This document shows positions 1 to 45,011 of a DNA stretch of 64,000 nucleotides, one piece after another. This DNA comes from Candidatus Omnitrophota bacterium. Its GTDB lineage: Bacteria > Omnitrophota > Gorgyraeia > Gygaellales > Profunditerraquicolaceae. Below the pieces are notes generated by a model. The model ran no database searches and had not been told where the DNA came from. It was given only the letters and a program-made list of their open reading frames with translations. Positions within the stretch are counted from its first letter, which is position 1. Each line of letters begins with the position of its first letter. The stretch lies in contig JBAZJY010000002.1 in assembly GCA_041651115.1 (NCBI GenBank), forward strand, positions 73,846 to 137,845, in the 5' to 3' direction. The position numbers and the translations under genes are program-made.

Positions 1-3000
1 AATGAATACGCTTCAGAGCTTATCCGGGAACTGATCATCCCAAAGCTTACCCGGGAAATAAATACTTCTAAGAAATACGCATCCCTCAGGCAGGTGTACT
101 ATTCTCTGATCCTGGCGCAATGGTTTAAAGCAAAATTCAATTCGGGCAGCGGCAAATATGAAAACCTCATAAATAGAAAAAACCTTTCCGGCCTGACTTC
201 GCAAATATTCTGGGATAAGCAATTTTACTTCCAGCAATATCAGGATTCATTCAATAAGGGCGAGTACAACCTGAAAGAAAATCGCTCCACTCCCTTTGGC
301 CAGACCATCCGCACCTATATGAGCGGCGGCCTTACCCTGGGCAATGAAATATCGTCAGCTATACAGGCTCAAACCATCGCTTCCAAACGCAGCAGCAGTC
401 CGCTTGCCAATAAAACTTTTAATCAGGCGGCAGAGATAGATGCAAACGGTAATATTAGGATAGCCGAAGGCAGTGTTTCTGCGCAAGAAGAGAATATCGC
501 TATTTTGCACGCGCTTATTAATCAGGGGCCTAAGGCATTTTTGTCCGGAGAAAAAGGCGATGAAAACAGGGATAGGGTAATCGGTATTGCCGAAAAATTT
601 GATTTCTACGTGGAGGAACTTTTAGACGAAGAGGATGAAGAAGATTTTTTTGAGTACGTTTTAGGGCTGGAAAAGCTGCTTAAGTTAAATCCCAGGGTCC
701 ATCAAGAGCCATCGGAGATGTTCGTCCATCTGGATAATCTTTCGCATAATCTGGGGCACATTAACAATCTTTTTAATATCGCGATCATAAGTTTCAATAA
801 AGTAGATGAAGTGGAATTAAGAACAGGGCAGATGAATATGTATCTTGCCGAGTACCAGGCCATAAGAAAACTGCTCTCCTGGGATGGCCTCAACAAAATT
901 AATCCGGAAGCCGTTAGCGACTTATTTACCGATACTATCCGTTATGTGGTGGGTTCGCGCGCGCTTTTTAAAGAAATAGGAGATATCTTAAATTCCAACA
1001 GGGACATGATAAGGGAAAAAGAAGAGGGACTGTATAGCCTGATAGACGGCTATCTGGAAAGAGCCAGGCTGGTTGATTCCGAATGCACCCATAATCTTGG
1101 GATCCTGAAACGGCTCAAGGAAGAAATATATGAGCCCGGAAAAAAAGAGCCGATTAACATTGGAGTTTCTGTCTACGAGGCTATTGAGCCATATTTGCAT
1201 AATGGCCATAGGGTCAAGTTTATTACGGATTTCCGGGATCAGGGAATGATGGTGCAGGCCAATGCTTTGCGCCTCTCCTATACATGGACTAATCTCATCG
1301 GGAATGCCATAGATGCCGTTAATAAATTCAAGCGTACTCCCGAAGGAAGAGGAGTCGATGGGATATTGACTGTTTCTGTCAGGCCGGTGCATACGGAGAA
1401 TACGGACATAATGGAAGTATCGTTTCAGGATAACGGCGGCGGTATTTCCAAGGCGATGAGCGAGAACGACAGGCTGTTTCTGCGCGGCGAATCCGACAAG
1501 CAGGGGGGCACAGGCAGGGGCCTTGCTTTGTGCAAAGAGGCTGCGGAATTTCACGGCGGGACTATAAGTGTTGAACCGAGGAGAGTGAGTGAATTTGACG
1601 ACAGGCCCGAGAAAACAGAAGATCCGAAGCGCGGCGCTAGATTTGTCATCCGCCTGCCCGTTGTTGCCAGCTCGCCGGTGGCTATAAGCGAGATCGCTCA
1701 AAAGGATAGCGATAAGATCACCCGGGAAGATAAGGCCGCCATGCTTAACCACGCGCGGCAAATGGATTTTTACGTCCAGCGCATAGAGGAAGAGAACGAT
1801 AGCCAAAACCTGAAAGCATATGCGACAGCGCTCGCAATTCTGGAAAAAGAAGGAGTTAAGCCGGCAGAAGGAGTTTACGCGGGCAAGCAAATAGATTTTA
1901 ACATCGTCAGCCACGATATCGGCCATATGATCATAGAAATGACCGTACTTCTCGGTATTTTGGAATTAGTGCCTGTAGAGAACGATCCGGCTGGTTATAA
2001 AAAGAGGGCATTGGAGCTGTGGGCTAAAATTCAGGCTTGGCAGGCAATCTTAGACTGGGAAAAAACCCTTGGCATTGCTCCCGGCATCCTCTCACGCATG
2101 ACAGAGGAGATTGGCAGCGATCTTGACAGCGTGGGCAATTTTTATAACGAGGTAAAAGATTATTTTAACCGGCATGTAGATAGTGAGATAGTGGCTGATT
2201 ATTCGGCGGCAGTAGACTTGCGCAGAGGAGAGAGAGAAATAATTGACTTTCTTCTTAGTGAGCTTAAGAACAACATATCAGATCCTTCAAGGGCCGCGGC
2301 CATAGATGAAAAATTTATTATCAATAAATTAGTGTGGTCTTATGAAAAACTAAAATCGGCTAACCTGAACTTTCAACTAAGGTTAAGAGCAGAAAATCTC
2401 CAAACATATGGAAACCCGCTGCGCGTTTATTCTATTTTTAAGAACCTGATCACTAATGCCGTAGATGAAGCAGCGGGGCTTGCCACTGGAAGCAAGTTTG
2501 TTAAAACGCCATCCGGTAAGTTTACAGAGGTTCGGCTTACCGATGAGCAGAAAAGGACTGTTGAAGAAAATAAAACCATCATTATCGCGAATAAGAACAT
2601 TAAAGAAGGCGACAAAGATTACGCGGAGTTCAGCATTGAAAACATAGCCTATATAACTCCGGAGATGAATGCGGAGTTATATGGCGGCAGAAAACTTTTT
2701 GCCAAAGGCCAAACCGGTAAAGAAAGCGGCACAGGCCTTGGCCTGGCCCTCATTGAAGAGATCGTTAAAGAGCACGGCGGAAGCGTTGATTATTACATTA
2801 AAGATATTCCCGGCGATGATACGCTTAAAAAGATACAATTTGTGGTAAAGCTGCCCGCGGTTTCCAGCTCGCCGGTCAGCGGCGATAAGGTTATCTTGAG
2901 CACGGCGGGAACAACAATCTCTTTATCTTCCGGAGACCAGGCCCGGATAGTAAGTGAGTTCCGGAGGCTGGCCAATCAAATTACTACGGAATTTTCGGAA

Positions 3001-6000
3001 GAAGATTTCCGCGAGAGCATGGGTTTAATTGTCGGCACGCATGAAAACGGAGCATATAGAATTACCAGGCTGGTTCCGATCACTGAGTTTGAAAAAGGCA
3101 GCAGCTATGATTTCCTTCTTCCCGGAAAGGCCCAGGTGATCCGGATCATTGAGAATGAACTGCGGAGCGGTGAACAGATCCTGGGTGATTACCATAATCA
3201 TTCTTATGAAAGACTGCGCAGTTTTCAGAAACCGGGCCCCAGTTCAGAGGATGCCATGGGAGGCGGATACTTGAATATTATCGGATACGAGAATAAGATC
3301 GCAAATAACCGCCTGAACATAGTTTTAGAGCCCGAATTGGACTTGGATAAGATAACCATGGATGAGCTGGCGAATTTTGACCCGTCTAATTCGCGGGTTA
3401 TCCTCTATCCTTACATATCGCCGAACAGGGGATTGGAGAGAAGGATTATCGAGCTGGATAAGATCTATTTGGATGCCTTGACAAAAGAAGTTAATTCCGG
3501 AGCGACCAGCTCGCCGATGAAATTGGGGGATCTTAAGAAATTAGCTCTCGGCGCAATGATGGCGTTTTATTTGTCCTGCTTGAGCTTCCATAACGTTAAT
3601 GCCCAAGTCAATGACACGCCGGCAATTGATTATTATTTTACCGTTAGCTCGCAGCTCCAGGATTCCATAAACAACTTAGTAAAGAAAGAGTTTTATGACA
3701 TAGTTTCGTTATCGCCAGACCAGATAAAGCAGCTGTTGACGGCAAAAGACCTTACGGAATTTAAGTCGGTGGCTGAATCTATGTTAGAGAAGAAGGGGTT
3801 AAGCCTGCCTTATTATGCACCGGAGGATATTGCGGATTTAGTATCTTCCTCAAAAACAGGGGACAGCGATATCCAGAGGCTAATCAGGATCAAAGGCGGC
3901 CTGAATTATCTCAGTCAGCATCATCCCTGGGTATTCAGGTTCGTTATGTTTAATGCCCAAAGAATAATTTTTGATTTTACTTATAATAAAAGCGGGGGAT
4001 ATGAAAATGAGCGCAAAATATATTACGGCGTTTTGCTTGACAACTATGCCATTGAAGAAATCGCCGCATTTCTGGCGCATGAGGCCGCGCATAGCTTCTT
4101 GGAGCTGATGGGAATGCCTGTAGGCGGGGCCGCAGGAGAGAGCGTTGCGATATATTTAGGTGATCTGATATTAAAAAACGCAAATATCAGGTTAGGCGCA
4201 GATAAATTTATCCTTAATTTGTCTTCTGAAGCGGCAAACAGAGGTCATTGGGGGCCGTGGCAAGATGCATATTATGAAGAAACCTATAATAAGGCCGGCA
4301 TTGAATTAAGGGATCATCTCAGGCACTTGGAATTTATTACTAAGCTGCCCGCAACATTGTTGGATATCATCATATTTGGCTCAAAAGACCAGTGGGAAAT
4401 TTATCCGGAATACAGGCGGCTGGGGCTCGATGCGCTTGGGGAGATATTAGAATCTGTTGAGTCGCAGCCGGTTGAAACCAAGGAATTCTTCGGAGTTTTA
4501 TTTGCCAACTATTTTGATGAATTGTGGAACGCGGGGGACGGGCTATATCGTGAATTGATACGCGCATATTTATTAAAAAACACAAACTACATCCCTGCGG
4601 CAAAACAACGGTTGATATTAGATGAGGTCGGCAATGCTCAAGTGGATGCCAGCTCGCCGGTGAAGGCTGCAGGGTTCTTGAAGACGACCGCGCTGTTATC
4701 AATGCTGTTTTTCCTGCCGGTGTTTGTCCAGCAGTCATTCAGCCAGAGCGCAAGGGCGCCTACCAATGTAGAGATGACGATATATATGTCGCGCGTAAAG
4801 GACCTTTCCGAGGCCAAAGACTTAGGCAGTTTATTAAAGATCATCAAAGACGATAAGGCCCATGCATTGTTTAAGATGCAGGCGATGGATGCCGTGCAGC
4901 GCATGCCTATGGTAATGAATAAGGCCTCGGACCTGATGAGGGCACTTGGCGCGATTGAAGACATTTATAATGATCCGCAGACCAGCAATCTAATAAACGG
5001 GAATACAGTCAGCTGGCTGGAACAGATCATGAAGAAATATGAAATTATCTGGTGGGGGGGTAAGGATACTCTCTTTGCGCCGATAGATGTTTATAAAGGC
5101 ACAGCAGAACTGATCCAGCAGATCGCTGCCGATCACCCGGATTTTATCAAGCCCGGGTCGTTGGCAGAATTCATCAGCAGGCAGCGCCAACCGCAGCTGC
5201 TTTATAAGCCGTGGCCGCATTATCCGGTTTATCAAAATCCGCAGTTTATCGCCGGGGTGCAAAAATATAACGCCGACACGCGGGAATACTATTCCATTTC
5301 CATGGCTGTTTATGACCTGCTGAATCTGGCCGGGGTAGGCTTAAGCGATACGACTATCAGCCAGGCAACGGATTATATTATGCAGCAGCGGCAGGCCTTT
5401 GGCCAACGGGTATTCTTTGATAAAGAGACCACAGCCATATTCATTGTTACCGAAGGAGAGGAATCTCAAAAGGACGTTGATCTGTTACGGGGCATTGCGC
5501 TGGACGCAGGAGTCTTGGAAGAAAATATCCATATTTTCCGGGGCATGAAAGATAAGCGTAAGCTCGCAACGCTTATTTCCGAGAGCACCGGGCCGCTAAC
5601 CATCGCCACAAATATGGAAGGGAATGAAGCGTCCTGGCGCATGGATCCCGAAGGCAATCAGCTTTCTTATGCAGAGTTTGCCAAATGGCTTGAGGCACGA
5701 AGTATTTTAACCAATGTAAATATTATTCTTGACGGCTGCCTGTCGACCAACCTTACAGAAGGGATGATCAATCTGCTTTACGATCCTTATGATCCTGCTT
5801 CCAAAGCAGCAGCTATCAGAAGGGGCCTGCCGACCGTAGTCTCAACTTCGGACGATAACCACCCTAGTTATGCGGACCAGCAAGGCCAGAGTTTCTTTTA
5901 TTCCGAGTTAAGCCTTATGCCGCGCGTTCCCGGAAAGCCGCTCCTGGGCAGGCAGATATTAGATACCGAGATTGCCGGATATAAACGGATGTTCGTTCTT

Positions 6001-9000
6001 GAAAATCCGCGCGTTTCGGTTTTTCTGCCGCTGGAGGGCAGGGAAGAGTTAGACCATATTTTCGGCGGCAAGACAAAATGGGGAAAAGTCTGGTTTTTCC
6101 CGATCGGCCAGGCTGAACCTAAGACCGATACGCTTAAGCCGGATGGCCTGCTGGCGCTCGGGCCAAAAGAAACCGTTACCAGCTCGCCGCTGAAGGCCGG
6201 CGGGTTCTTTAAAACAGCTGCGTTGGTATCAATGTTGGTGCTCCTGCCGGCATTGGGCCAGCCATTATTCGGCCAGCAAGCTGAACTTTTATCTACCGAT
6301 GCGCAAGGCCGCGCAGAGTTTAAGAACAATGTCTCTCTTACTTTGGCATCTTTAGGGGGAGCCGTTGATATTACGGCAGCTGCCGAGGCTGATCGCCCCC
6401 GTACATACAATTACAACCCTCAAACCGGGATGCTGGAGATTACATATGCTATTCCGGGATATGTCAATGTCAGCAAACCCAACGACGTAGTTACAATAAC
6501 CGCGCGAAAAATTGTTCCGCAGTTTGCCCTTATTACCGATGAATCGGGAAGCCAGGATAAAGAAGCCATGACCGAGCAGGGCCGTCAGTTCGCAAGAGTC
6601 CTGCAGTTTATCCAGAATAGATATCCTGGCATGCGCAATATCCGAATAAGCACGGTTACCGATCCCAACCCTCAAGTTTCCTCTTATTCCGGTGCAGCCG
6701 ATGCGCAAGATTATTTTAATCAGCCGGTATTCCAGAGCGACCCGTTACTGGGAGCCACGCATTTCGTAGAGGCAGTAAGAAATACAATCAAATCTTTTAA
6801 TAATAGCGCTCCGGGGATAATTTTAGCAGCCTCTTCAGATTTTGAACAGGATCCTTTGGCCAGAGGCAGTGATCCTGTAAAACCGGAAGATTTGAGAGCT
6901 CCTTTTTATGAAATGGCCGGTGAATTAGAGGAGCTTAATACCCACCTTTTTATTGCAACGCAAAATGCTGACAGTCAAAAGAACATCCGAATATTGACGG
7001 ATGAGTATCTTAAAAAGTGCGAGGCGGAGGGAAAGGCGCCGTATATTCATTACCAGGTTGTAGGCGCGGAAAATATGAGCGCCGCATTTACCTCTTTTAT
7101 CGCTGAATCTGATTTTCCTGAACAAATTCCTTTACCTACGCAGAATAAGGATATCAAGATAGATTTTCTTTCTTCTGGCCCCGGCGGGCAAGACGCCTCC
7201 GGAGCGGTCAACCCGCAACAGGGGTCCCTTGCCGGTAGTATAAAAATAAACGGAAGCACTTTAGTCCTAAAAGATTTATTTAAGGGATTAGGGGATGTTG
7301 ATTCCGCGCAGGTCGTTTTTTCGTATGAACCCCTGATAGTTCCGCTACCATTAACGCACACCCCGCAGGATATTTACCTGGTGAAAGATTATAGCGGCAG
7401 CGTCAGGGATATAAAGTGGAATGCTTTCCTGAAAGACTTACTTATTAAATTAAAAGAGAGAGGAGACCGGATTATCGGCGGGACATTCTTTGGCCCGGAA
7501 GTCATCTCGGTAGCCGGTTTTGATGGCGTTTTAAGCGCCGTGGAATCGCCCAGGGGTGGGTATACCCATGGCTGGGCGGCCTTAAAAAAGATCTTCCAGC
7601 AAATGGACGATATGCCCGATAATGCGACATTATATTTTATTTCAGACGGCGTATTTAATGACCGGGATTTTACTGACGGGGAGAAAGAACGGGTCAAGGA
7701 AAAATTCCTGCAGAAATTAAAGGATAAAAACATACGCTTTGTCTGGATCGCGCCCGAAAAGGCTTCTCCGGGCGTAACCAAATTTTTGTCAAATGCCGTT
7801 AATAACGGAAAAGCAGCGGACAATCTCCGGGCTTCTTTAAGCCCCTATGCCACGCTGTTGACATTTGCCGTTGCTACCAACCCGGACAGGGGAGTGGTGT
7901 TTTATAAAAACGAAGATACGATTTCCGGCCTGGCCGAAGCCACGGGGCTTTATAGCAGGAAAGTTATCGATGTCCCGGAAAAATTCCCCATAAGGCAGGT
8001 GCAAATATTGTTTCAGGATGAGGGGAAAGAAAAGCGGATAGTAGTAGATATGCAAGACACAGAAGAAAAGCCCGGTTCCAGCTCGCCGATCACCGAGTTA
8101 TCCGGCCAGCTGCCTGAAGAAGAAGCCGCGCAGCTGGAAATACCATTTGTATACCCCCAGAATGCGCCTACCGTCATCTTGCCGCTGAAACTCAACGGCG
8201 CTGATAAAAAAGAATTAATGGAATATAAGGGTACCCTGGAGATTTTAAAAGCGAAATTATCAAATTACCTTGAACATCCCGAATATCTTAAAGACAAAGG
8301 AAAGCTCGAAAGCGTTTTGCCTATCGCCAAAGAGGCAATCAGCGAATTTTTGGGAAAAGTAGCTGCTGCCGATAAGTTAAGGCCGGTTTATGATACCTTT
8401 GCCCGGGCGGATTTTGATGCTCCTATAAACACAGATTTTGGCGACCAGTTTAATGGTTTTGTTGCTTATGTTCAAATGGGGATAAACCAACTTGATTCGC
8501 AAGGATCCATTTCATCGCGTTTAATTTTGAGCCTGATAACTACGCTTACCCAAACCATTGAATTTTTAGAGAACGCAATTTTAATCTTTGAAAAACTCAC
8601 TGGCCCCTCAAAGAGCGAATTTAAAACCAAGCTGTCAAACGGAGGATCGGGAAGCCCTTCCGTCCTCATATTGGATCTCAATGACCTTTTAAGCAGTGTC
8701 GGCTCAGAGATCAGCTCGCCGGTAAAAACAGAAGCTACGAATGATAAGGGCGGTATTGATTTTAGGGCGTTGCCGGTTGTGACGCAGCCGGTTTTAGGGA
8801 CGGTTCTCAGCCAAGGAGAAAAACGTCCCCAAATGGGGACGCTTTTACCTTGGACTGAGAACCGTCCCTCTCTTGACCAGGAATTACAGCAGATTAGGAA
8901 GATGATTGATTCCGGAATTGTTCCCTCAAGCGAGAGAATCAAGGAATATGCGCAGACTTGCGGCAGCCAGGACATAGATAAAATATTATCTTGTATCGCG

Positions 9001-9159
9001 GATATCTTAAGACTGGAAGAAGAGCGGGTTGAGGAAACCGATCCGCAGTTAAGACAGTTGGTCATGGTGCTTGAATCGGATAAGCCGGCAAATGAGATGC
9101 AGCTGGCAGTAGCCGCGATCTCGTTTTCCGCGAAAGATCCGGTTCTGGTGAAACCTTAA
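1..9159 (+). CDS. Giant multidomain protein, 5'-partial (frame open from nt 1; >3,050 aa). It has two GHKL/HATPase_c ATPase modules, an HExxH zincin-like motif, a vWA domain with a DxSGS MIDAS motif, and SSP-punctuated modules with internal signal-peptide-like segments.
   Basis: Frame 1 is open from nt 1 to the TAA at 9157-9159; the ORF track starts it at an in-frame GTG at 94. HATPase_c N/G1/G2 boxes are visible twice (NLIGNAIDAV..DNGGGIS..GGTGRGLALCKE at ~1290-1540; NLITNAVDEA..GTGLGLALIEEIVKEHGG at ~2440-2770). HEAAH lies at 4078-4092, DYSGSV at 7387-7401, and SSP junctions at 1667, 2864, 3506, 4649, 6179, 8078 and 8712. Confidence 0.7.
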   Translation, partial: NEYASELIRELIIPKLTREINTSKKYASLRQVYYSLILAQWFKAKFNSGSGKYENLINRKNLSGLTSQIFWDKQFYFQQYQDSFNKGEYNLKENRSTPFGQTIRTYMSGGLTLGNEISSAIQAQTIASKRSSSPLANKTFNQAAEIDANGNIRIAEGSVSAQEENIAILHALINQGPKAFLSGEKGDENRDRVIGIAEKFDFYVEELLDEEDEEDFFEYVLGLEKLLKLNPRVHQEPSEMFVHLDNLSHNLGHINNLFNIAIISFNKVDEVELRTGQMNMYLAEYQAIRKLLSWDGLNKINPEAVSDLFTDTIRYVVGSRALFKEIGDILNSNRDMIREKEEGLYSLIDGYLERARLVDSECTHNLGILKRLKEEIYEPGKKEPINIGVSVYEAIEPYLHNGHRVKFITDFRDQGMMVQANALRLSYTWTNLIGNAIDAVNKFKRTPEGRGVDGILTVSVRPVHTENTDIMEVSFQDNGGGISKAMSENDRLFLRGESDKQGGTGRGLALCKEAAEFHGGTISVEPRRVSEFDDRPEKTEDPKRGARFVIRLPVVASSPVAISEIAQKDSDKITREDKAAMLNHARQMDFYVQRIEEENDSQNLKAYATALAILEKEGVKPAEGVYAGKQIDFNIVSHDIGHMIIEMTVLLGILELVPVENDPAGYKKRALELWAKIQAWQAILDWEKTLGIAPGILSRMTEEIGSDLDSVGNFYNEVKDYFNRHVDSEIVADYSAAVDLRRGEREIIDFLLSELKNNISDPSRAAAIDEKFIINKLVWSYEKLKSANLNFQLRLRAENLQTYGNPLRVYSIFKNLITNAVDEAAGLATGSKFVKTPSGKFTEVRLTDEQKRTVEENKTIIIANKNIKEGDKDYAEFSIENIAYITPEMNAELYGGRKLFAKGQTGKESGTGLGLALIEEIVKEHGGSVDYYIKDIPGDDTLKKIQFVVKLPAVSSSPVSGDKVILSTAGTTISLSSGDQARIVSEFRRLANQITTEFSEEDFRESMGLIVGTHENGAYRITRLVPITEFEKGSSYDFLLPGKAQVIRIIENELRSGEQILGDYHNHSYERLRSFQKPGPSSEDAMGGGYLNIIGYENKIANNRLNIVLEPELDLDKITMDELANFDPSNSRVILYPYISPNRGLERRIIELDKIYLDALTKEVNSGATSSPMKLGDLKKLALGAMMAFYLSCLSFHNVNAQVNDTPAIDYYFTVSSQLQDSINNLVKKEFYDIVSLSPDQIKQLLTAKDLTEFKSVAESMLEKKGLSLPYYAPEDIADLVSSSKTGDSDIQRLIRIKGGLNYLSQHHPWVFRFVMFNAQRIIFDFTYNKSGGYENERKIYYGVLLDNYAIEEIAAFLAHEAAHSFLELMGMPVGGAAGESVAIYLGDLILKNANIRLGADKFILNLSSEAANRGHWGPWQDAYYEETYNKAGIELRDHLRHLEFITKLPATLLDIIIFGSKDQWEIYPEYRRLGLDALGEILESVESQPVETKEFFGVLFANYFDELWNAGDGLYRELIRAYLLKNTNYIPAAKQRLILDEVGNAQVDASSPVKAAGFLKTTALLSMLFFLPVFVQQSFSQSARAPTNVEMTIYMSRVKDLSEAKDLGSLLKIIKDDKAHALFKMQAMDAVQRMPMVMNKASDLMRALGAIEDIYNDPQTSNLINGNTVSWLEQIMKKYEIIWWGGKDTLFAPIDVYKGTAELIQQIAADHPDFIKPGSLAEFISRQRQPQLLYKPWPHYPVYQNPQFIAGVQKYNADTREYYSISMAVYDLLNLAGVGLSDTTISQATDYIMQQRQAFGQRVFFDKETTAIFIVTEGEESQKDVDLLRGIALDAGVLEENIHIFRGMKDKRKLATLISESTGPLTIATNMEGNEASWRMDPEGNQLSYAEFAKWLEARSILTNVNIILDGCLSTNLTEGMINLLYDPYDPASKAAAIRRGLPTVVSTSDDNHPSYADQQGQSFFYSELSLMPRVPGKPLLGRQILDTEIAGYKRMFVLENPRVSVFLPLEGREELDHIFGGKTKWGKVWFFPIGQAEPKTDTLKPDGLLALGPKETVTSSPLKAGGFFKTAALVSMLVLLPALGQPLFGQQAELLSTDAQGRAEFKNNVSLTLASLGGAVDITAAAEADRPRTYNYNPQTGMLEITYAIPGYVNVSKPNDVVTITARKIVPQFALITDESGSQDKEAMTEQGRQFARVLQFIQNRYPGMRNIRISTVTDPNPQVSSYSGAADAQDYFNQPVFQSDPLLGATHFVEAVRNTIKSFNNSAPGIILAASSDFEQDPLARGSDPVKPEDLRAPFYEMAGELEELNTHLFIATQNADSQKNIRILTDEYLKKCEAEGKAPYIHYQVVGAENMSAAFTSFIAESDFPEQIPLPTQNKDIKIDFLSSGPGGQDASGAVNPQQGSLAGSIKINGSTLVLKDLFKGLGDVDSAQVVFSYEPLIVPLPLTHTPQDIYLVKDYSGSVRDIKWNAFLKDLLIKLKERGDRIIGGTFFGPEVISVAGFDGVLSAVESPRGGYTHGWAALKKIFQQMDDMPDNATLYFISDGVFNDRDFTDGEKERVKEKFLQKLKDKNIRFVWIAPEKASPGVTKFLSNAVNNGKAADNLRASLSPYATLLTFAVATNPDRGVVFYKNEDTISGLAEATGLYSRKVIDVPEKFPIRQVQILFQDEGKEKRIVVDMQDTEEKPGSSSPITELSGQLPEEEAAQLEIPFVYPQNAPTVILPLKLNGADKKELMEYKGTLEILKAKLSNYLEHPEYLKDKGKLESVLPIAKEAISEFLGKVAAADKLRPVYDTFARADFDAPINTDFGDQFNGFVAYVQMGINQLDSQGSISSRLILSLITTLTQTIEFLENAILIFEKLTGPSKSEFKTKLSNGGSGSPSVLILDLNDLLSSVGSEISSPVKTEATNDKGGIDFRALPVVTQPVLGTVLSQGEKRPQMGTLLPWTENRPSLDQELQQIRKMIDSGIVPSSERIKEYAQTCGSQDIDKILSCIADILRLEEERVEETDPQLRQLVMVLESDKPANEMQLAVAAISFSAKDPVLVKP

Positions 9160-9244
9160 AAGCGTATTGTTACGAAGCGGGGCGACCTGCCTGTTTGGTT
9201 TATCAGCCAAAGTAAGCCAAAGAGCGCGCCCCCTTTAATTTACG

Positions 9245-9279
9245 GGGGATAACTTTAGCCTTGACAAAGTTATCCCCCG
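9245..9279. promoter_or_regulatory. Perfect 13-bp inverted repeat (GGGGGATAACTTT-N9-AAAGTTATCCCCC) with the loop carrying a TTGACA -35-like hexamer. It may be an operator or the terminator of the giant gene.
   Basis: Read directly: gggggataacttt agccttgac aaagttatccccc. An upstream ccccc run (9230-9234) could pair with ggggg instead. Confidence 0.4.
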
Positions 9280-9289
9280 GTGGTAAACT
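9261..9289 (+). promoter_or_regulatory. Candidate sigma70-type promoter for the pyr operon (TTGACA-17-TAAACT).
   Basis: TTGACA at 9261-9266 is followed by a 17-nt spacer and TAAACT at 9284-9289. The -10 matches TATAAT at only 4/6 positions. Confidence 0.3.
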
Positions 9290-9342
9290 TATAAAAATTG
9301 AAGATAACCTTTAAGCTGGCTCTTGAGAAGTCGGCAAGGTGA

Positions 9343-9954
<612 letters not shown>

Positions 9955-13458: not shown

Positions 13459-13530
13459 GCGCCTGTGGCCCAACGGATAGGGCACTAGCCTCCGGAGCTG
13501 GTGGTACAGGTTCGATTCCTGTCAGGCGCA
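13459..13530 (+). tRNA. tRNA-Arg (anticodon CCG).
   Basis: Cloverleaf folded by hand: acceptor GCGCCTG/CAGGCGC, anticodon loop CTCCGGA, T-loop TTCGATT. No encoded CCA. Confidence 0.85.
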
Positions 13531-13541
13531 CTTTTATAACA

Positions 13542-28332: not shown

Positions 28333-28409
28333 GGGCGGTTAGTTCAGCTGGTTAGAACGTCTCTCTTACACAGAGAAGGTCAGGGGTCCGAGTCCTCTAC
28401 CGCCCACCA
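28333..28409 (+). tRNA. tRNA-Val (anticodon TAC), CCA encoded.
   Basis: Acceptor GGGCGGT/ACCGCCC, anticodon loop CTTACAC, T-loop TCCGAGT, 3' ACCA. Confidence 0.85.
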
Positions 28410-28419
28410 TAAATATTTG

Positions 28420-28448
28420 TTGCAAACAGCAGATTTTTAGTCTACAAT
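28420..28448 (+). promoter_or_regulatory. Promoter for tRNA-Asp (TTGCAA-17-TACAAT).
   Basis: ttgcaa at 28420-28425, a 17-nt spacer, tacaat at 28443-28448. The tRNA starts 16 nt downstream. Confidence 0.5.
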
Positions 28449-28464
28449 TAGCACCCTACGAATT

Positions 28465-28540
28465 GGGGTCGTGGTGTAGCCCGGTCTAACACGTCGCCCT
28501 GTCACGGCGAAGATCGCGAGTTCAAATCTCGTCGACCCCG
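28465..28540 (+). tRNA. tRNA-Asp (anticodon GTC).
   Basis: Acceptor GGGGTCG/CGACCCC, anticodon loop CTGTCAC, T-loop TTCAAAT. Confidence 0.88.
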
Positions 28541-28569
28541 TTGAAATTTTCCGACAAGGAAAATTTCAA
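28541..28569 (+). terminator. Perfect 12-bp hairpin (TTGAAATTTTCC-N5-GGAAAATTTCAA) immediately 3' of tRNA-Asp. It may be a processing site or terminator stem.
   Basis: Read directly. No T-run follows. Confidence 0.35.
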
Positions 28570-35820: not shown

Positions 35821-35901
35821 GCGCGGGTGGTGGAATGGCAGACACGCTACTTTGAGGGGGTAGTGGGGCGACCTGTGAGGGTTCAACTCCCTCCCCGCGC
35901 A
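35821..35901 (+). tRNA. tRNA-Leu (anticodon GAG), long variable arm.
   Basis: Acceptor GCGCGGG/CCCGCGC, anticodon loop TTGAGGG, long variable arm, T-loop TTCAACT. Confidence 0.8.
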
Positions 35902-43079: not shown

Positions 43080-45011
43080 ATGGAAAGCAGCGCCTTATCG
43101 CAGCAGTCCCGCAAATATATCCGTTTGGACTCGGTATTCCCGGTTGAATTTCAGGTAATCGGGTTAGACGACGCAACCCGGATGTCCGAATGGCTGCAGG
43201 GTTTTACCCGTAACGTCAGCAAAGGCGGCATTTGCCTTGAAGTAAACCGCCTGCCTGCTGATGTGGCGGCGCTCTTGCGCAGCCGGCAAGCGAAATTGTC
43301 GTTAAAAATAGAAATGCCTGTTTTACGCAGCCCCGTTCCCGCCGTTGCCAACATCGTCTGGATAAAAGAGCCGGAGGGCCATGATCAGAAGTATGTGATC
43401 GGCTTAAGCTATGAAGAGATTGACAGGTGCCAGAATTCAAAGATCATGTTCCAGGCGCGGCTGAAAAAAATAATCCTTCCCGTAGCCGCAGCGATCATCC
43501 TGATCTTGGCATCTGCCTTTTTACTGGGCACTTACTTTAATATGAAATTGGTCCGCGGCAACAAAGCTGCCGTGGAGCAGCTTGTTAAGACCATCCAGGA
43601 ATCAAGCTTTGCCAAGCAAAAAATAAGAGAGATCACCGGAGACCGGGAGGAGTTGCTGTCAAAGATCCAGGCTCTGCAGTTGCGCATAGAAACGGTTGAA
43701 AACGAGAAAGCAAGAGCCGAACAGGAAAAGATCGTGCAGGCCGGGTTCAGCCCGGATATCCACGTGGGAAAGCTGATGCAAGAAAAGTCAGCGCTGGAGG
43801 ATAGCCTTATCCGGCTGCAGCAGAAAGAGAGCGCGATCGCCGAAGAATTGCTGCAGCTTGACCAACGCAAGGCCAGGCTTGAGAAAACGAATCTGGATAA
43901 AATGTACCACTGGCTGGCGATCCATCAAAACCACCGCACCGGCCTGGTAATGAGCTTTGAAGGAGACGGCGAGCTGACCAATTGGGCGTTTGTTTATGAC
44001 CAGTCCCTGGCAGCCCAGGCGTATTTAATTTTATCCGATTTTGAACGGGCAAAAAAAGTGCTGGCCTTTTTTGCCAAGAAAGCGCAAAGGAGCGACGGAT
44101 TATTTTATAACGCTTATTATTCCAACGATTCCACTCCCGCAGAATTTACCGTGCATTGCGGCCCAAACCTCTGGCTGGGCATCGCGATCATCCAGTATTC
44201 CGAGAAGACAAAAGACAACACGTTCATGAAGCTGGCAGAAGAGATCGCGCAGGCGATCATCAGGCTGCAAATGGAAGATCAGGACGGCGGGTTAAGGGGC
44301 GGGCCAAATGTCGAATGGTATTCTACGGAGCATAACCTTGACGCTTACGCGTTTTTTAACATGCTTTATAAGCGCACGGGTAAAAGTCAATATCGCGACA
44401 GCCGGGATAAAATACTGCATTGGCTGAATATACATACTTACGATAAGGAGGATGTCCCGGTCATCCGCGGCAAGGGCGATGCTACGATTGCCACAGATAC
44501 TTATGCCTGGTCCATTGCCGCCATCGGGCCGCAAAAACTGGAAGAGATCGGCATGAATCCCGATATGATCATGGATTTTGCCGAGAAGAACTGCGCGGTG
44601 GAGGTAGATTATATCCGGCCGGAAGGCAAGGCCGTCAAGATCAAGGGTTTTGATTTTGCCCCGCAGAGGCACCTTGGCCGGGGCGGAGTTGTTTCTGCGG
44701 AATGGACCTCGCAGATGGTCATATCCTTTAAGATCATGGCTGATTTTTACTATAAGAAAAAAATGCCGGCTAAGGCGCGCGGTTATGAATTAAAGGCTGA
44801 CAATTACCTGACCGGCCTCGGCAATATGATCATTTCCAGCCCTTCTCCGTCGGGGCAAGGCGACAGCTGCCTGCCTTACGCAACTCAGGAAAACGTAGAT
44901 ACCGGCCACGGCTGGATGACGCCTAAGGGTAAGACTACCGGATCGGTAGCCGGCACAGCATATACACTTTTTGCGTATTATAATTATAATCCGCTGAAGC
45001 TGAAAGAATGA
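43080..45011 (+). CDS. PilZ-domain protein with a TM segment, a coiled coil and a C-terminal (alpha/alpha)6-barrel-like domain.
   Basis: RxxxR (RKYIR) and N/DxSxxG (RNVSKGG) c-di-GMP-binding motifs. One TM (ILPVAAAIILILASAFLL) and a long heptad region. Confidence 0.6.
   Translation: MESSALSQQSRKYIRLDSVFPVEFQVIGLDDATRMSEWLQGFTRNVSKGGICLEVNRLPADVAALLRSRQAKLSLKIEMPVLRSPVPAVANIVWIKEPEGHDQKYVIGLSYEEIDRCQNSKIMFQARLKKIILPVAAAIILILASAFLLGTYFNMKLVRGNKAAVEQLVKTIQESSFAKQKIREITGDREELLSKIQALQLRIETVENEKARAEQEKIVQAGFSPDIHVGKLMQEKSALEDSLIRLQQKESAIAEELLQLDQRKARLEKTNLDKMYHWLAIHQNHRTGLVMSFEGDGELTNWAFVYDQSLAAQAYLILSDFERAKKVLAFFAKKAQRSDGLFYNAYYSNDSTPAEFTVHCGPNLWLGIAIIQYSEKTKDNTFMKLAEEIAQAIIRLQMEDQDGGLRGGPNVEWYSTEHNLDAYAFFNMLYKRTGKSQYRDSRDKILHWLNIHTYDKEDVPVIRGKGDATIATDTYAWSIAAIGPQKLEEIGMNPDMIMDFAEKNCAVEVDYIRPEGKAVKIKGFDFAPQRHLGRGGVVSAEWTSQMVISFKIMADFYYKKKMPAKARGYELKADNYLTGLGNMIISSPSPSGQGDSCLPYATQENVDTGHGWMTPKGKTTGSVAGTAYTLFAYYNYNPLKLKE

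Follow-up and report, generated by a model that had tools for sequence, protein, structure and literature searches.

Is a bacterial open reading frame (ORF) of more than 9 kb, whose translation carries ATPase-like and protease-like domains in one chain, a single large protein or a string of proteins written as one gene? The question is raised by the beginning of a 64,000-nucleotide stretch of DNA (the window) from Candidatus Omnitrophota bacterium (assembly GCA_041651115.1, contig JBAZJY010000002.1, positions 73,846 to 137,845 of the forward strand), where a giant ORF fills the first 9,159 nt. This ORF belongs to a large modular family of the Omnitrophota, named here capped cargo arrays, in which a conserved N-terminal cap (head) and a conserved C-terminal cap (tail) enclose a variable series of cargo modules. 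The reading preferred here, that the cargo is exchanged at the junctions between modules and that the product is probably cut there into separate proteins, is given about an even chance.

A Giant Gene with Constant Ends

The initial annotation of this DNA had described the frame as open over nt 1–9159, with the N-terminus upstream of the window, and both statements are correct: the frame is open to nt 9156 and is closed by TAA. An identical database protein, P0001, is 3,295 aa long; 243 aa are encoded upstream, window nt 1 falls at residue 244, and the giant ORF makes up the 3' 93% of the gene. The encoding contig (locus L001) supplies the gene start and the neighbouring genes. Upstream extension, which had been proposed as a way to find the true N-terminus and any secretion signal, reveals a Sec-type signal peptide. 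The NCBI name of P0001 is 'MAG: ATP-binding protein [Candidatus Omnitrophota bacterium]', and this name and the titles of most related loci confirm that the DNA comes from an Omnitrophota genome. HATPase_c is the only Pfam family that scores above threshold in the giant ORF, and it still holds that most of the remainder has no family assignment. The ORF contains no tandem DNA repeats.

Which parts of the protein are conserved? The head comprises residues 1 to about 355 of P0001, opens with a signal peptide that ends GFA-Q, and is recognised by the motifs FWVNLRPD, IPTLTRPWIVP, and RxYxSGG. Among the 120 best homologues (1,700–4,940 aa; those with a name are nearly all from Omnitrophota), 119 align with residues 1–355, at 55–67% identity. 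The tail aligns in 118 of the 120. It opens with a disordered stretch that contains GGIDFRALP, of which GGID and LP are invariant in alignment A2, and continues through a variable linker into a five-helix bundle of about 90 aa with conserved Cys residues. Cargo is common to just 4–8 of the 120 homologues. Neither cap matches any family in Pfam or NCBIfam, and profile searches of the PDB with the caps gave only chance-level or repeat-like matches; no structural relative of the head domain could be detected there, and a fold search with the tail returned generic helical bundles only.

The family is large, and its members range overall from about 800 to more than 4,900 aa. With one genome scanned per species, 425 head-encoding loci came to light, several per genome, with ORFs of about 800 to more than 3,700 aa, and a metagenome scan added more than 389 family loci. 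The titles of related loci mostly name Omnitrophota; a minority read 'uncultured Planctomycetales' or just 'bacterium'. The Pfam content of the homologues is highly varied and includes methyltransferases, metallophosphoesterases, GNAT, HAD, DnaJ, M48, HEAT, guanylate kinase, NDK, HPr, phosphomannomutase, and enolase- and transketolase-like domains. Small members hold one cargo, for example HEAT repeats, a J domain or, in P0121 (926 aa), an HExxH module set between head and tail. P0115, a protein of 3,196 aa from another genome, carries transaldolase-, aminotransferase-, transketolase-, and enolase-like modules in series. Their Pfam scores are unusually low, which marks them as divergent copies and not standard enzymes of central metabolism. 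The argument that housekeeping-enzyme cargo proves a cytoplasmic function was dropped, because the P0115 scores lie far under the expectation for canonical enzymes. P0122 (424 aa) consists of the JAMM module and the tail, without the head motifs, and P0126, P0135, P0151, and P0164 likewise have a GGIDF-type motif near the C-terminus and no head motifs; either the tail can exist without the head, or these gene calls are truncated.

The Junctions between Modules

What marks the border of a module? Each cargo module starts directly after a junction of the form [A/S]SSP[V/L/I], and the junctions divide the protein into units of 145–633 aa (Table 1). In a six-frame translation of the 64-kb window, the pattern [AST]SSP[VLIM] occurs eight times in the giant ORF and nowhere else. 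Across the family, the tripeptide SSP was observed 436 times against 66 expected (6.6-fold), and [ASTVG]SSP[VLIMA] reaches 0.72 per 1,000 aa in family ORFs versus 0.010 in the ORFs that flank them, a difference of about 70-fold. The motif is frequent and not universal, with at least one xSSPx in 72 of the 120 homologues and none in the other 48. Recognisable domains end at these sites: the two HATPase_c domains of the giant protein stop at aa 554 and about aa 952, 3–4 residues ahead of the junctions at aa 557 and 956, and in L002 and P0115 junctions bracket kinase-like, GT4, and enolase-like domains.

The DNA of the junctions is also uniform within this gene. The final 10 nt before the new module are identical, CAGCTCGCCG, at seven of the eight junctions, which share the codons AGC TCG CCG preceded by C. 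The remaining 55 kb contain a single further copy, on the minus strand at nt 43967, and a scan that allowed up to one mismatch gave 17 matches against 4.7 expected. Under the codon usage of the ORF itself, the same 9-mer at seven of eight sites has a probability of about 7e-11. Neither codon bias nor protein-level selection accounts for this uniformity of the seven junctions. Other members have mixed Ser and Pro codons at SSP, and this variation rules out a purely DNA-level motif as a general rule.

A longer similarity is found at two of the boundaries. The DNA at the boundary of modules 4 and 5 is about 75% identical over 100 nt to that at the boundary of modules 5 and 6; the similarity starts exactly at CCAGCTCGCCG, and there is none upstream. 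It covers the signal-peptide-like heads of modules 5 and 6 (nt 4650–4750 and 6180–6280, KAAGFLKTTALLSML... versus KAGGFFKTAALVSML...), beyond which the two modules are unrelated. A piece made up of junction and signal peptide may move, or be homogenised, independently of the rest of a module.

Table 1. Position of the giant ORF, its caps, junctions and modules, and of other features in the window.
Feature	Position (nt)	Strand	Remark
Giant ORF, frame 1	1-9156, stop TAA 9157-9159	+	3,052 codons
N-terminal cap (C-terminal 134 aa), linker and first junction	1-402	+	signal peptide and first 243 aa upstream of window
RTYMSGG	310-330	+	family-invariant R-x-Y-x-S-G-G, end of head
First junction SSSPL	SSP at 394-402	+	after short linker behind head
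Junction 10-mer CAGCTCGCCG	1668 (1668-1677), 2865, 3507, 4650, 6180, 8079, 8712	+	encodes xSSP
Module 1, histidine-kinase-like	403-1677	+	ends in junction ASSPV
Module 1 H-box-like SHNLGH	742-759	+	aa 248; helical N-terminal part
Module 1 N box NLIGNAIDA	1291-1317	+	
Module 1 G1 box QDNGGGI	1426-1446	+	
Module 1 G2 box GGTGRGLAL	1504-1530	+	
Module 2, paralogue of module 1	1678-2874	+	full length; BLASTP 24% identity, ~400 aa, E=3e-20
Module 2 SHDIGH	1909-1926	+	aa 637
Module 2 N box NLITNAVDE	2443-2469	+	
Module 2 IENIAYI	2635-2655	+	replaces G1 box
Module 2 G2 box SGTGLGLAL	2725-2751	+	
Module 3, JAMM/MPN+-like metalloprotease unit	2875-3516	+	
Module 3 FRESMGLIVG	3007-3036	+	contains the Glu
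Module 3 HNH	3193-3201	+	
Module 3 PGPSSED	3232-3252	+	
Module 4, signal-peptide-led HExxH unit	3517-4659	+	
Module 4 signal-peptide-like start	3517-3606	+	MKLGDLKKLALGAMMAFYLSCLSFHNVNA, then Q
Module 4 HEAAH	4078-4092	+	aa 1360-1364
Module 4 conserved GE	4129-4143	+	16 residues past HEAAH
Module 5, signal-peptide-led	4660-6189	+	helical region, then clan-CD caspase/legumain-like domain
Module 5 signal-peptide-like start	4660-4746	+	VKAAGFLKTTALLSMLFFLPVFVQQSFS, then Q
Module 5 NMEGNE	5611-5628	+	Glu-Gly in place of catalytic His-Gly
Module 5 LDGCLS	5728-5745	+	Cys retained
Module 6, signal-peptide-led orphan region	6190-8088	+	putative vWA
Module 6 signal-peptide-like start	6190-6276	+	LKAGGFFKTAALVSMLVLLPALGQPLFG, then Q
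Module 6 TDESGS	6535-6552	+	second, weaker vWA-like stretch; by eye only
Module 6 KDYSGS	7384-7401	+	
Module 6 GYTHG	7558-7572	+	
Module 6 ISDGVFND	7639-7662	+	
Module 7	8089-8721	+	common only to P0011
C-terminal cap (tail), ~145 aa	8722-9159	+	window aa 2908-3052; stop 9157-9159
GGIDFRALP	8749-8775	+	invariant, in disordered stretch of tail
Gap between giant gene and pyrR	9160-9414		255 nt
Perfect inverted repeat GGGGGATAACTTT...AAAGTTATCCCCC	about 9243-9278		13-bp stem; overlaps TTGACA/TAAACT promoter-like site
Terminator-like hairpin and T-run	9379-9412		ends 2 nt ahead of pyrR start codon
Antisense ORF, 312 aa	988-1926	-	inside giant gene
tRNA genes Arg-CCG, Val-TAC, Asp-GTC, Leu-GAG (four)	13459-13531, 28333-28541, 35821-35901	+	all on + strand

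Turnover of Cargo at a Fixed Position

Are the modules also the units in which the family evolves? Comparison of the members shows that they are, the junctions being the sites at which modules have been duplicated, put into another order, inserted, or replaced. The JAMM module (module 3) recurs with 57–61% identity in P0002, P0003, and P0004, at positions 907, 1251, and 408; it stands before a kinase-like module in P0004 and after the kinase-like modules in P0001. Locus L056 encodes a head, a kinase-like module, and the starts of modules 5 and 6, with no detectable second kinase-like module (HK2), JAMM module, or module 4. When modules 3–5 were searched against 1.84 billion representative proteins, only 53 relatives were found, nearly all of them inside other long modular proteins.

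The strongest evidence for module exchange is synteny. At 26 of 79 genome loci, glmS and/or rsmI lie upstream; eight of these loci also have pyrB–pyrC downstream, seven of them with pyrR. At 21 syntenic loci only the caps align with P0001 (head 57–65%, tail 40–54% identity), the exceptions being L056 and L050, the latter with a weak match to module 5 (25% identity). The flanking proteins of the closest species (L002) are 78–91% identical (five of six at 88–91%), with about 79% DNA identity. DNA collinearity with the window gene ends there at codon 353, the end of the head, and returns in the tail. The intervening cargo of this 1,457-aa protein is a kinase-like module and a GT4 glycosyltransferase, with borders that abut SSP sites; other syntenic members carry GT9 or GNAT cargo. 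Whole cargoes have been replaced between species, with the caps and the chromosomal position fixed, and exchange of modules at the junctions is largely shown. Near-identical strains that would record a recent swap were not found, the head of the best metagenome relative being only 67% identical. Clustering of flanking ORFs over the 79 loci revealed housekeeping synteny only, with no conserved neighbouring protease or secretion system.

The Kinase-Like and JAMM Modules

Modules 1 and 2 contain the two HATPase_c domains on which the initial annotation had centred. It had considered that the GHKL boxes might prove spurious; the Pfam HMM search identifies real GHKL ATPase domains in both modules (gathering score 26.4). 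Module 1 scores 60.9 bits (aa 422–554, E=2e-16), has the N, G1, and G2 boxes, and matches the catalytic domains of WalK/YycG and PrrB in the PDB. Module 2 scores 40.3 bits (about aa 804–952, E=4.9e-10). The earlier description of both domains as complete fits module 1 only, since module 2 has IENIAY in place of the G1 box QDNGGG. Because of this replacement, module 2 may be a pseudokinase.

The modules resemble sensor histidine kinases in having an HATPase_c domain and an upstream helical region with an invariant H-box-like His. Earlier, no HisKA H-box and no receiver domain had been seen. Pfam agrees, with no match to HisKA or Response_reg in the giant protein, but an H-box-like motif is present after all: H[DEN]LxH is invariant, as are the N box and G2 box, in all seven aligned kinase-like modules (modules 1 and 2 and five from other proteins), with the G1 box DNG found in five of the seven. 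About 180 residues lie between the H-box-like His and the N box, whereas typical histidine kinases have about 110. Further differences from sensor kinases are the lack of a sensor, transmembrane, or receiver domain and the G1 box missing from module 2. At this locus the adjacent genes are rsmI and pyrR, and no response regulator is adjacent.

Module 3 is a JAMM/MPN+-like unit that had escaped remark. In alignment A3, with seven members, E47, H107, S123, and D126 do not vary and six of the seven have H109, giving the pattern E...HxH...SxxD. The module scores 18.4 bits against Prok-JAB (cut-off 25, E=0.002); six of the seven members match at E~2e-3, all below the gathering score. A PDB profile search returned only 2kks, at E=0.25.

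Could the protein be a single large and unorthodox sensor histidine kinase, with the protease-like and vWA domains as its sensory or output parts? This was the implied reading of the initial annotation. The conserved H-box-like His of two kinase-like modules and the complete ATP-binding boxes of module 1 speak for it, and vWA and protease domains co-occur with signalling ATPases in other systems. However, each module can be found without the others, in a different order, or next to unrelated partners, positional orthologues have none of these modules, no receiver domain or adjacent response regulator is present, and three of the modules have export signals of their own. Nor is the set of kinase-like, HExxH, and vWA modules seen to be conserved together across many members. 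Given the comparative data, the single-kinase reading is close to refuted and must be considered very unlikely. The combination of GHKL, zincin, and vWA domains is not supported as a meaningful architecture either, as the domains belong to separate self-contained modules that relatives reorder, recombine, or lack.

Modules That Begin with a Signal-Peptide-Like Segment

Right after SSP, modules 4, 5, and 6 each start with a basic n-region and a hydrophobic core that ends in a small residue followed by Gln (VNA-Q, SFS-Q, LFG-Q). These calls were made by inspection. The three starts resemble the N-terminal signal peptide of the family (GFA-Q), and similar segments follow SSP in other members. Neither these internal segments nor the junction motif, the caps, or the clan-CD domain of module 5 had been remarked on in the initial annotation.

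The HEAAH motif reported in the initial annotation lies in module 4. Alignment with P0121, P0136, P0137, and P0139 shows conservation of HE[AT]xH..GG..GE..A and of HWGxWQD; HE[AT]xH is found in four of the five relatives, and the Glu 16 residues later in all five. The only Pfam match is a weak one to DUF2268 (E=0.13), with no peptidase family. Module 4 is a putative zincin-type metallopeptidase of an undescribed family.

Module 5, in its second half, belongs by its sequence to a family with a clan-CD fold, and one of its homologues gives a weak match to Peptidase_C13 (E=0.0065). His-Gly is present in all 12 homologues aligned at the catalytic His site, where module 5 has Glu-Gly. All homologues that reach the Cys site keep the Cys, in the context C[FY]SY in all except P0132 (CRSY). 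Module 5 is probably inactive, because the catalytic His is replaced by Glu. Two cargo modules of this array thus look catalytically dead, module 5 by loss of the His and module 2 by loss of G1.

For module 6, the vWA domain with a MIDAS site is putative. VWA_CoxE scores 23.2 bits, below the cut-off of 26.4 (E=5.2e-5), and the MIDAS-like residues (DYSGS, T, SDG) were recognised by eye only. There is no PDB sequence match to the putative vWA domain, and the two vWA-like stretches of the module show no detectable similarity to each other. A word-index search found no homologues of module 6, a weak null since it missed even the parent P0001. Module 7 matches no family. BLASTP similarity to P0011 runs from the C-terminal cap upstream into module 7; an extended tail was rejected as an explanation, because module 7 is common only to P0011.

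Are such modules genes in their own right, translated from starts at the junctions? Internal translation starts are unlikely and were rejected: the junctions lie in GC-rich contexts without the A-rich or Shine-Dalgarno context of the real starts in the window, and family-wide the residue after SSP is V, L, I, or A, which is not a set of start codons. A different possibility is that adjacent genes were joined by a frameshift, a chimeric assembly join, or faulty gene calling. The modules do look like separate genes, three have signal peptides, and one begins with ATG and two with GTG. This artefact is nevertheless highly improbable: the 9,156 nt contain no stop codon, base composition is uniform over the ORF, the junction context is that described above, the same sequence is on record on two contigs, one of which was read here, and hundreds of independent assemblies contain ORFs with the same order of head, cargo, and tail. 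The initial annotation had named several fused genes as a possible refutation. This applies in an evolutionary sense, as the array is a string of gene-like units, three with signal peptides, and does not apply as an error, as the units are in frame without an assembly or frameshift artefact.

One Chain or Several Proteins?

Where would the modules end up, and does their location favour a cut chain? In the mechanism proposed here the chain would be a polyprotein, cut at or beside the SSP junctions. Modules with a signal peptide of their own would be exported singly after cutting, and the JAMM module and the kinase-like modules, which depend on ATP, would remain cytoplasmic. With cutting, each of the eight units would reach the compartment expected for its type; without it, only three of the eight would do so by our count. 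Cleavage at or next to the junctions, which we infer from the sequence, is favoured because the cut units all match their predicted compartments, because insertion of all three successive N-in signal sequences is impossible as long as the chain is intact, and because an uncut chain behind a signal peptide would put the kinase-like and JAMM modules outside the cytoplasm and two of the three exported-type modules inside. The signal-peptide form of the starts of modules 4–6 and the DNA similarity that sets in exactly at CCAGCTCGCCG also count in its favour.

An uncut scaffold of many enzymes threaded through the membrane has been proposed for longer Omnitrophota proteins (10.64898/2026.06.07.730766). 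Applied to this family, it would make the N-terminal signal peptide and the three internal hydrophobic segments transmembrane anchors, keep the entire chain in the inner membrane, place the modules alternately in cytoplasm and periplasm, and treat SSP as a conserved flexible linker. Such a scaffold is consistent with four hydrophobic segments in 3,295 aa and with the lack of a family-wide conserved protease, and a conserved head and tail make more sense in a chain that stays in one piece. However, behind a cleaved or N-in signal peptide some 1,400 aa without another hydrophobic segment, which comprise the head, the two kinase-like modules, and the JAMM module, would lie outside the cytoplasm and away from ATP. 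Modules 4 and 6, which look exported, would face the cytoplasm, and the low count of correctly placed units given above is that of the scaffold. All three internal segments, moreover, resemble N-in signal peptides in charge pattern and c-region. On balance the scaffold seems unlikely.

Several observations weigh against the preferred reading of an array that is cut at its junctions. Cleavage is a pure inference. The homologues without xSSPx, 48 of 120 or about 40%, indicate that some members can do without the motif. Of 118 internal hydrophobic peaks, only 15 come directly after a junction, and if the products are independent it is hard to see why each gene should keep both caps. The codons shared by seven junctions, found in the P0001 gene only, suggest a role in recombination or gene conversion over a protease site. 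The JAMM module is absent from most members and is therefore not the general processing enzyme.

A more specific form of the proposal is tentative and rather doubtful at present: that these genes encode bacterial chromosomal polyproteins cut at SSP, that some products are exported by way of formerly internal signal peptides, and that head and tail are fixed bookends. If true, the bookends would let a bacterium with a small genome swap whole sets of proteins at one locus, and the polyprotein would be a new mode of bacterial gene organisation and expression. If the junctions are cut, gene counts and annotation for the phylum will need revision, with one ORF standing for several proteins, and the topological paradox of ATP-dependent enzymes outside the cell would be resolved. 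If they are not, the motif and the caps still define a hypervariable gene family that is probably involved in host interaction. The family also offers a tractable handle, being of modest size (0.8–5 kaa), with recognisable caps, junctions at domain borders, and a syntenic locus at which turnover can be followed; small members such as P0121 are suited to direct expression tests.

Relation to Known Systems

How does the family compare with other genes in which constant and variable parts are combined? In MARTX toxins, conserved N- and C-terminal regions flank an array of effectors, which are swapped by recombination and released by cleavage of the linkers. The likeness lies in constant ends around variable modules and is an analogy of mechanism only. 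MARTX toxins, which lack a Sec signal peptide, are marked by RTX repeats, a type I secretion signal at the C-terminus, and a clan-CD cysteine protease domain (CPD) that is conserved. None of the three was detected in P0001 (with no Pfam match to RTX or CPD in the giant protein), which has a Sec signal instead. Unlike the MARTX CPD, module 5 is cargo, is not conserved, and lacks the catalytic His.

In the polymorphic toxins CdiA and Rhs/YD, a short motif (VENN and PxxxxDPxGL) marks the border of constant and variable parts, which is the point of exchange. In these systems a single variable toxin forms the C-terminus and the immunity gene comes next, whereas P0001 has many modules between constant ends and pyrR downstream, and its C-terminus is the conserved part.

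Could the arrays nevertheless be secreted carriers of many effectors, with the caps as constant devices of export or delivery, the cargo as effectors acting in or on a host or prey cell, and SSP as a counterpart of the VENN or Leu-linker borders at which effectors are swapped and released? The family's range of cargo (kinase-like, protease-like, glycosyltransferase, acetyltransferase, J-domain, HEAT) is similar to that of effector repertoires, and many of these types need cytoplasmic substrates yet follow a signal peptide. Wholesale replacement of cargo at a fixed locus is known from arms-race genes, the cargo that resembles metabolic enzymes is highly divergent, with low bit scores, and not of housekeeping grade, and Omnitrophota have been proposed to be host-dependent or predatory (PMC10066038). 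By contrast, neither the array nor its neighbourhood (locus dnaA-gyrBA-glmS-rsmI-X-pyrRBC) contains a secretion-system component, RTX repeats, a CPD, or an immunity gene, internal signal peptides are unexpected in effectors meant for another cell, and the His of module 5 and the G1 box of module 2 are lost. PADLOC gave no match, which also counts against a carrier of effectors. This explanation is unlikely. The result with PADLOC also led to the rejection of an anti-phage defence system.

Viral polyproteins of the flavivirus type resemble the preferred reading of a chain cut at its junctions. A single ORF there encodes several proteins; internal signal peptides take some parts across a membrane and are followed by signal peptidase sites, and cytosolic cuts are made by another protease. 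P0001 differs as a member of a bacterial chromosomal family near the replication origin, in which no conserved protease was found and cleavage is hypothetical.

Long multi-enzyme ORFs are a signature of the Omnitrophota. Giant ORFs in the phylum were noted in 2023 (PMC10066038), and two surveys, by West-Roberts et al. in 2023 (10.1101/2023.11.21.568195) and by Nielsen and Lui in 2026 (10.64898/2026.06.07.730766), covered proteins of at least 30,000 aa and at least 10,000 aa, respectively. According to both papers, long Omnitrophota proteins mix unrelated Pfam domains, most commonly HATPase_c, methyltransferase, GNAT, and HAD, and have an N-terminal signal peptide and periodic hydrophobic segments; cleavage was suspected, and the cleavage points were stated to be unknown. 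Shared with the present family are the phylum, the tiling of unrelated Pfam domains along one chain, and the signal peptide with hydrophobic segments, and in itself the presence of GHKL domains in a giant ORF of this phylum falls within a phenomenon already known. The class 1 multi-enzyme proteins of the 2026 study have at least 10,000 aa and many Pfam domains, whereas P0001 has 3,295 aa and one Pfam family above threshold. A text search of the two papers found no conserved head, tail, or junction motif and no mention of cargo replacement at a syntenic locus, and a literature search found no report of an Omnitrophota polyprotein. The organisation into caps, junctions, and cargo, with turnover at a syntenic locus, appears to be new. 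If the polyprotein proposal is true, the SSP junctions would supply the cleavage points that these papers lack.

The Locus and Its Surroundings

At L001 the genes are arranged in the order dnaA, dnaN, dciA, gyrB, gyrA, glmS, an rsmI-like methylase gene, the giant gene (X), pyrR, pyrB, and pyrC. The window thus begins just downstream of dnaA-dnaN-dciA-gyrB-gyrA, beside the likely replication origin. The gap between the giant gene and pyrR holds an inverted repeat and a terminator-like hairpin, and the hairpin region before pyrR looks like a pyr attenuator; no Rfam family reached the gathering score in this gap (nt 9160–9414).

Besides the 312-aa antisense ORF and the four tRNA genes listed in Table 1, further antisense ORFs of 100–200 aa are present, and the antisense ORFs are assumed to be by-products of the long open frame. 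The plus strand holds nearly all long ORFs of the window, and cumulative GC skew climbs almost continuously over the 64 kb. Strand bias and GC skew are consistent with a leading-strand replichore.

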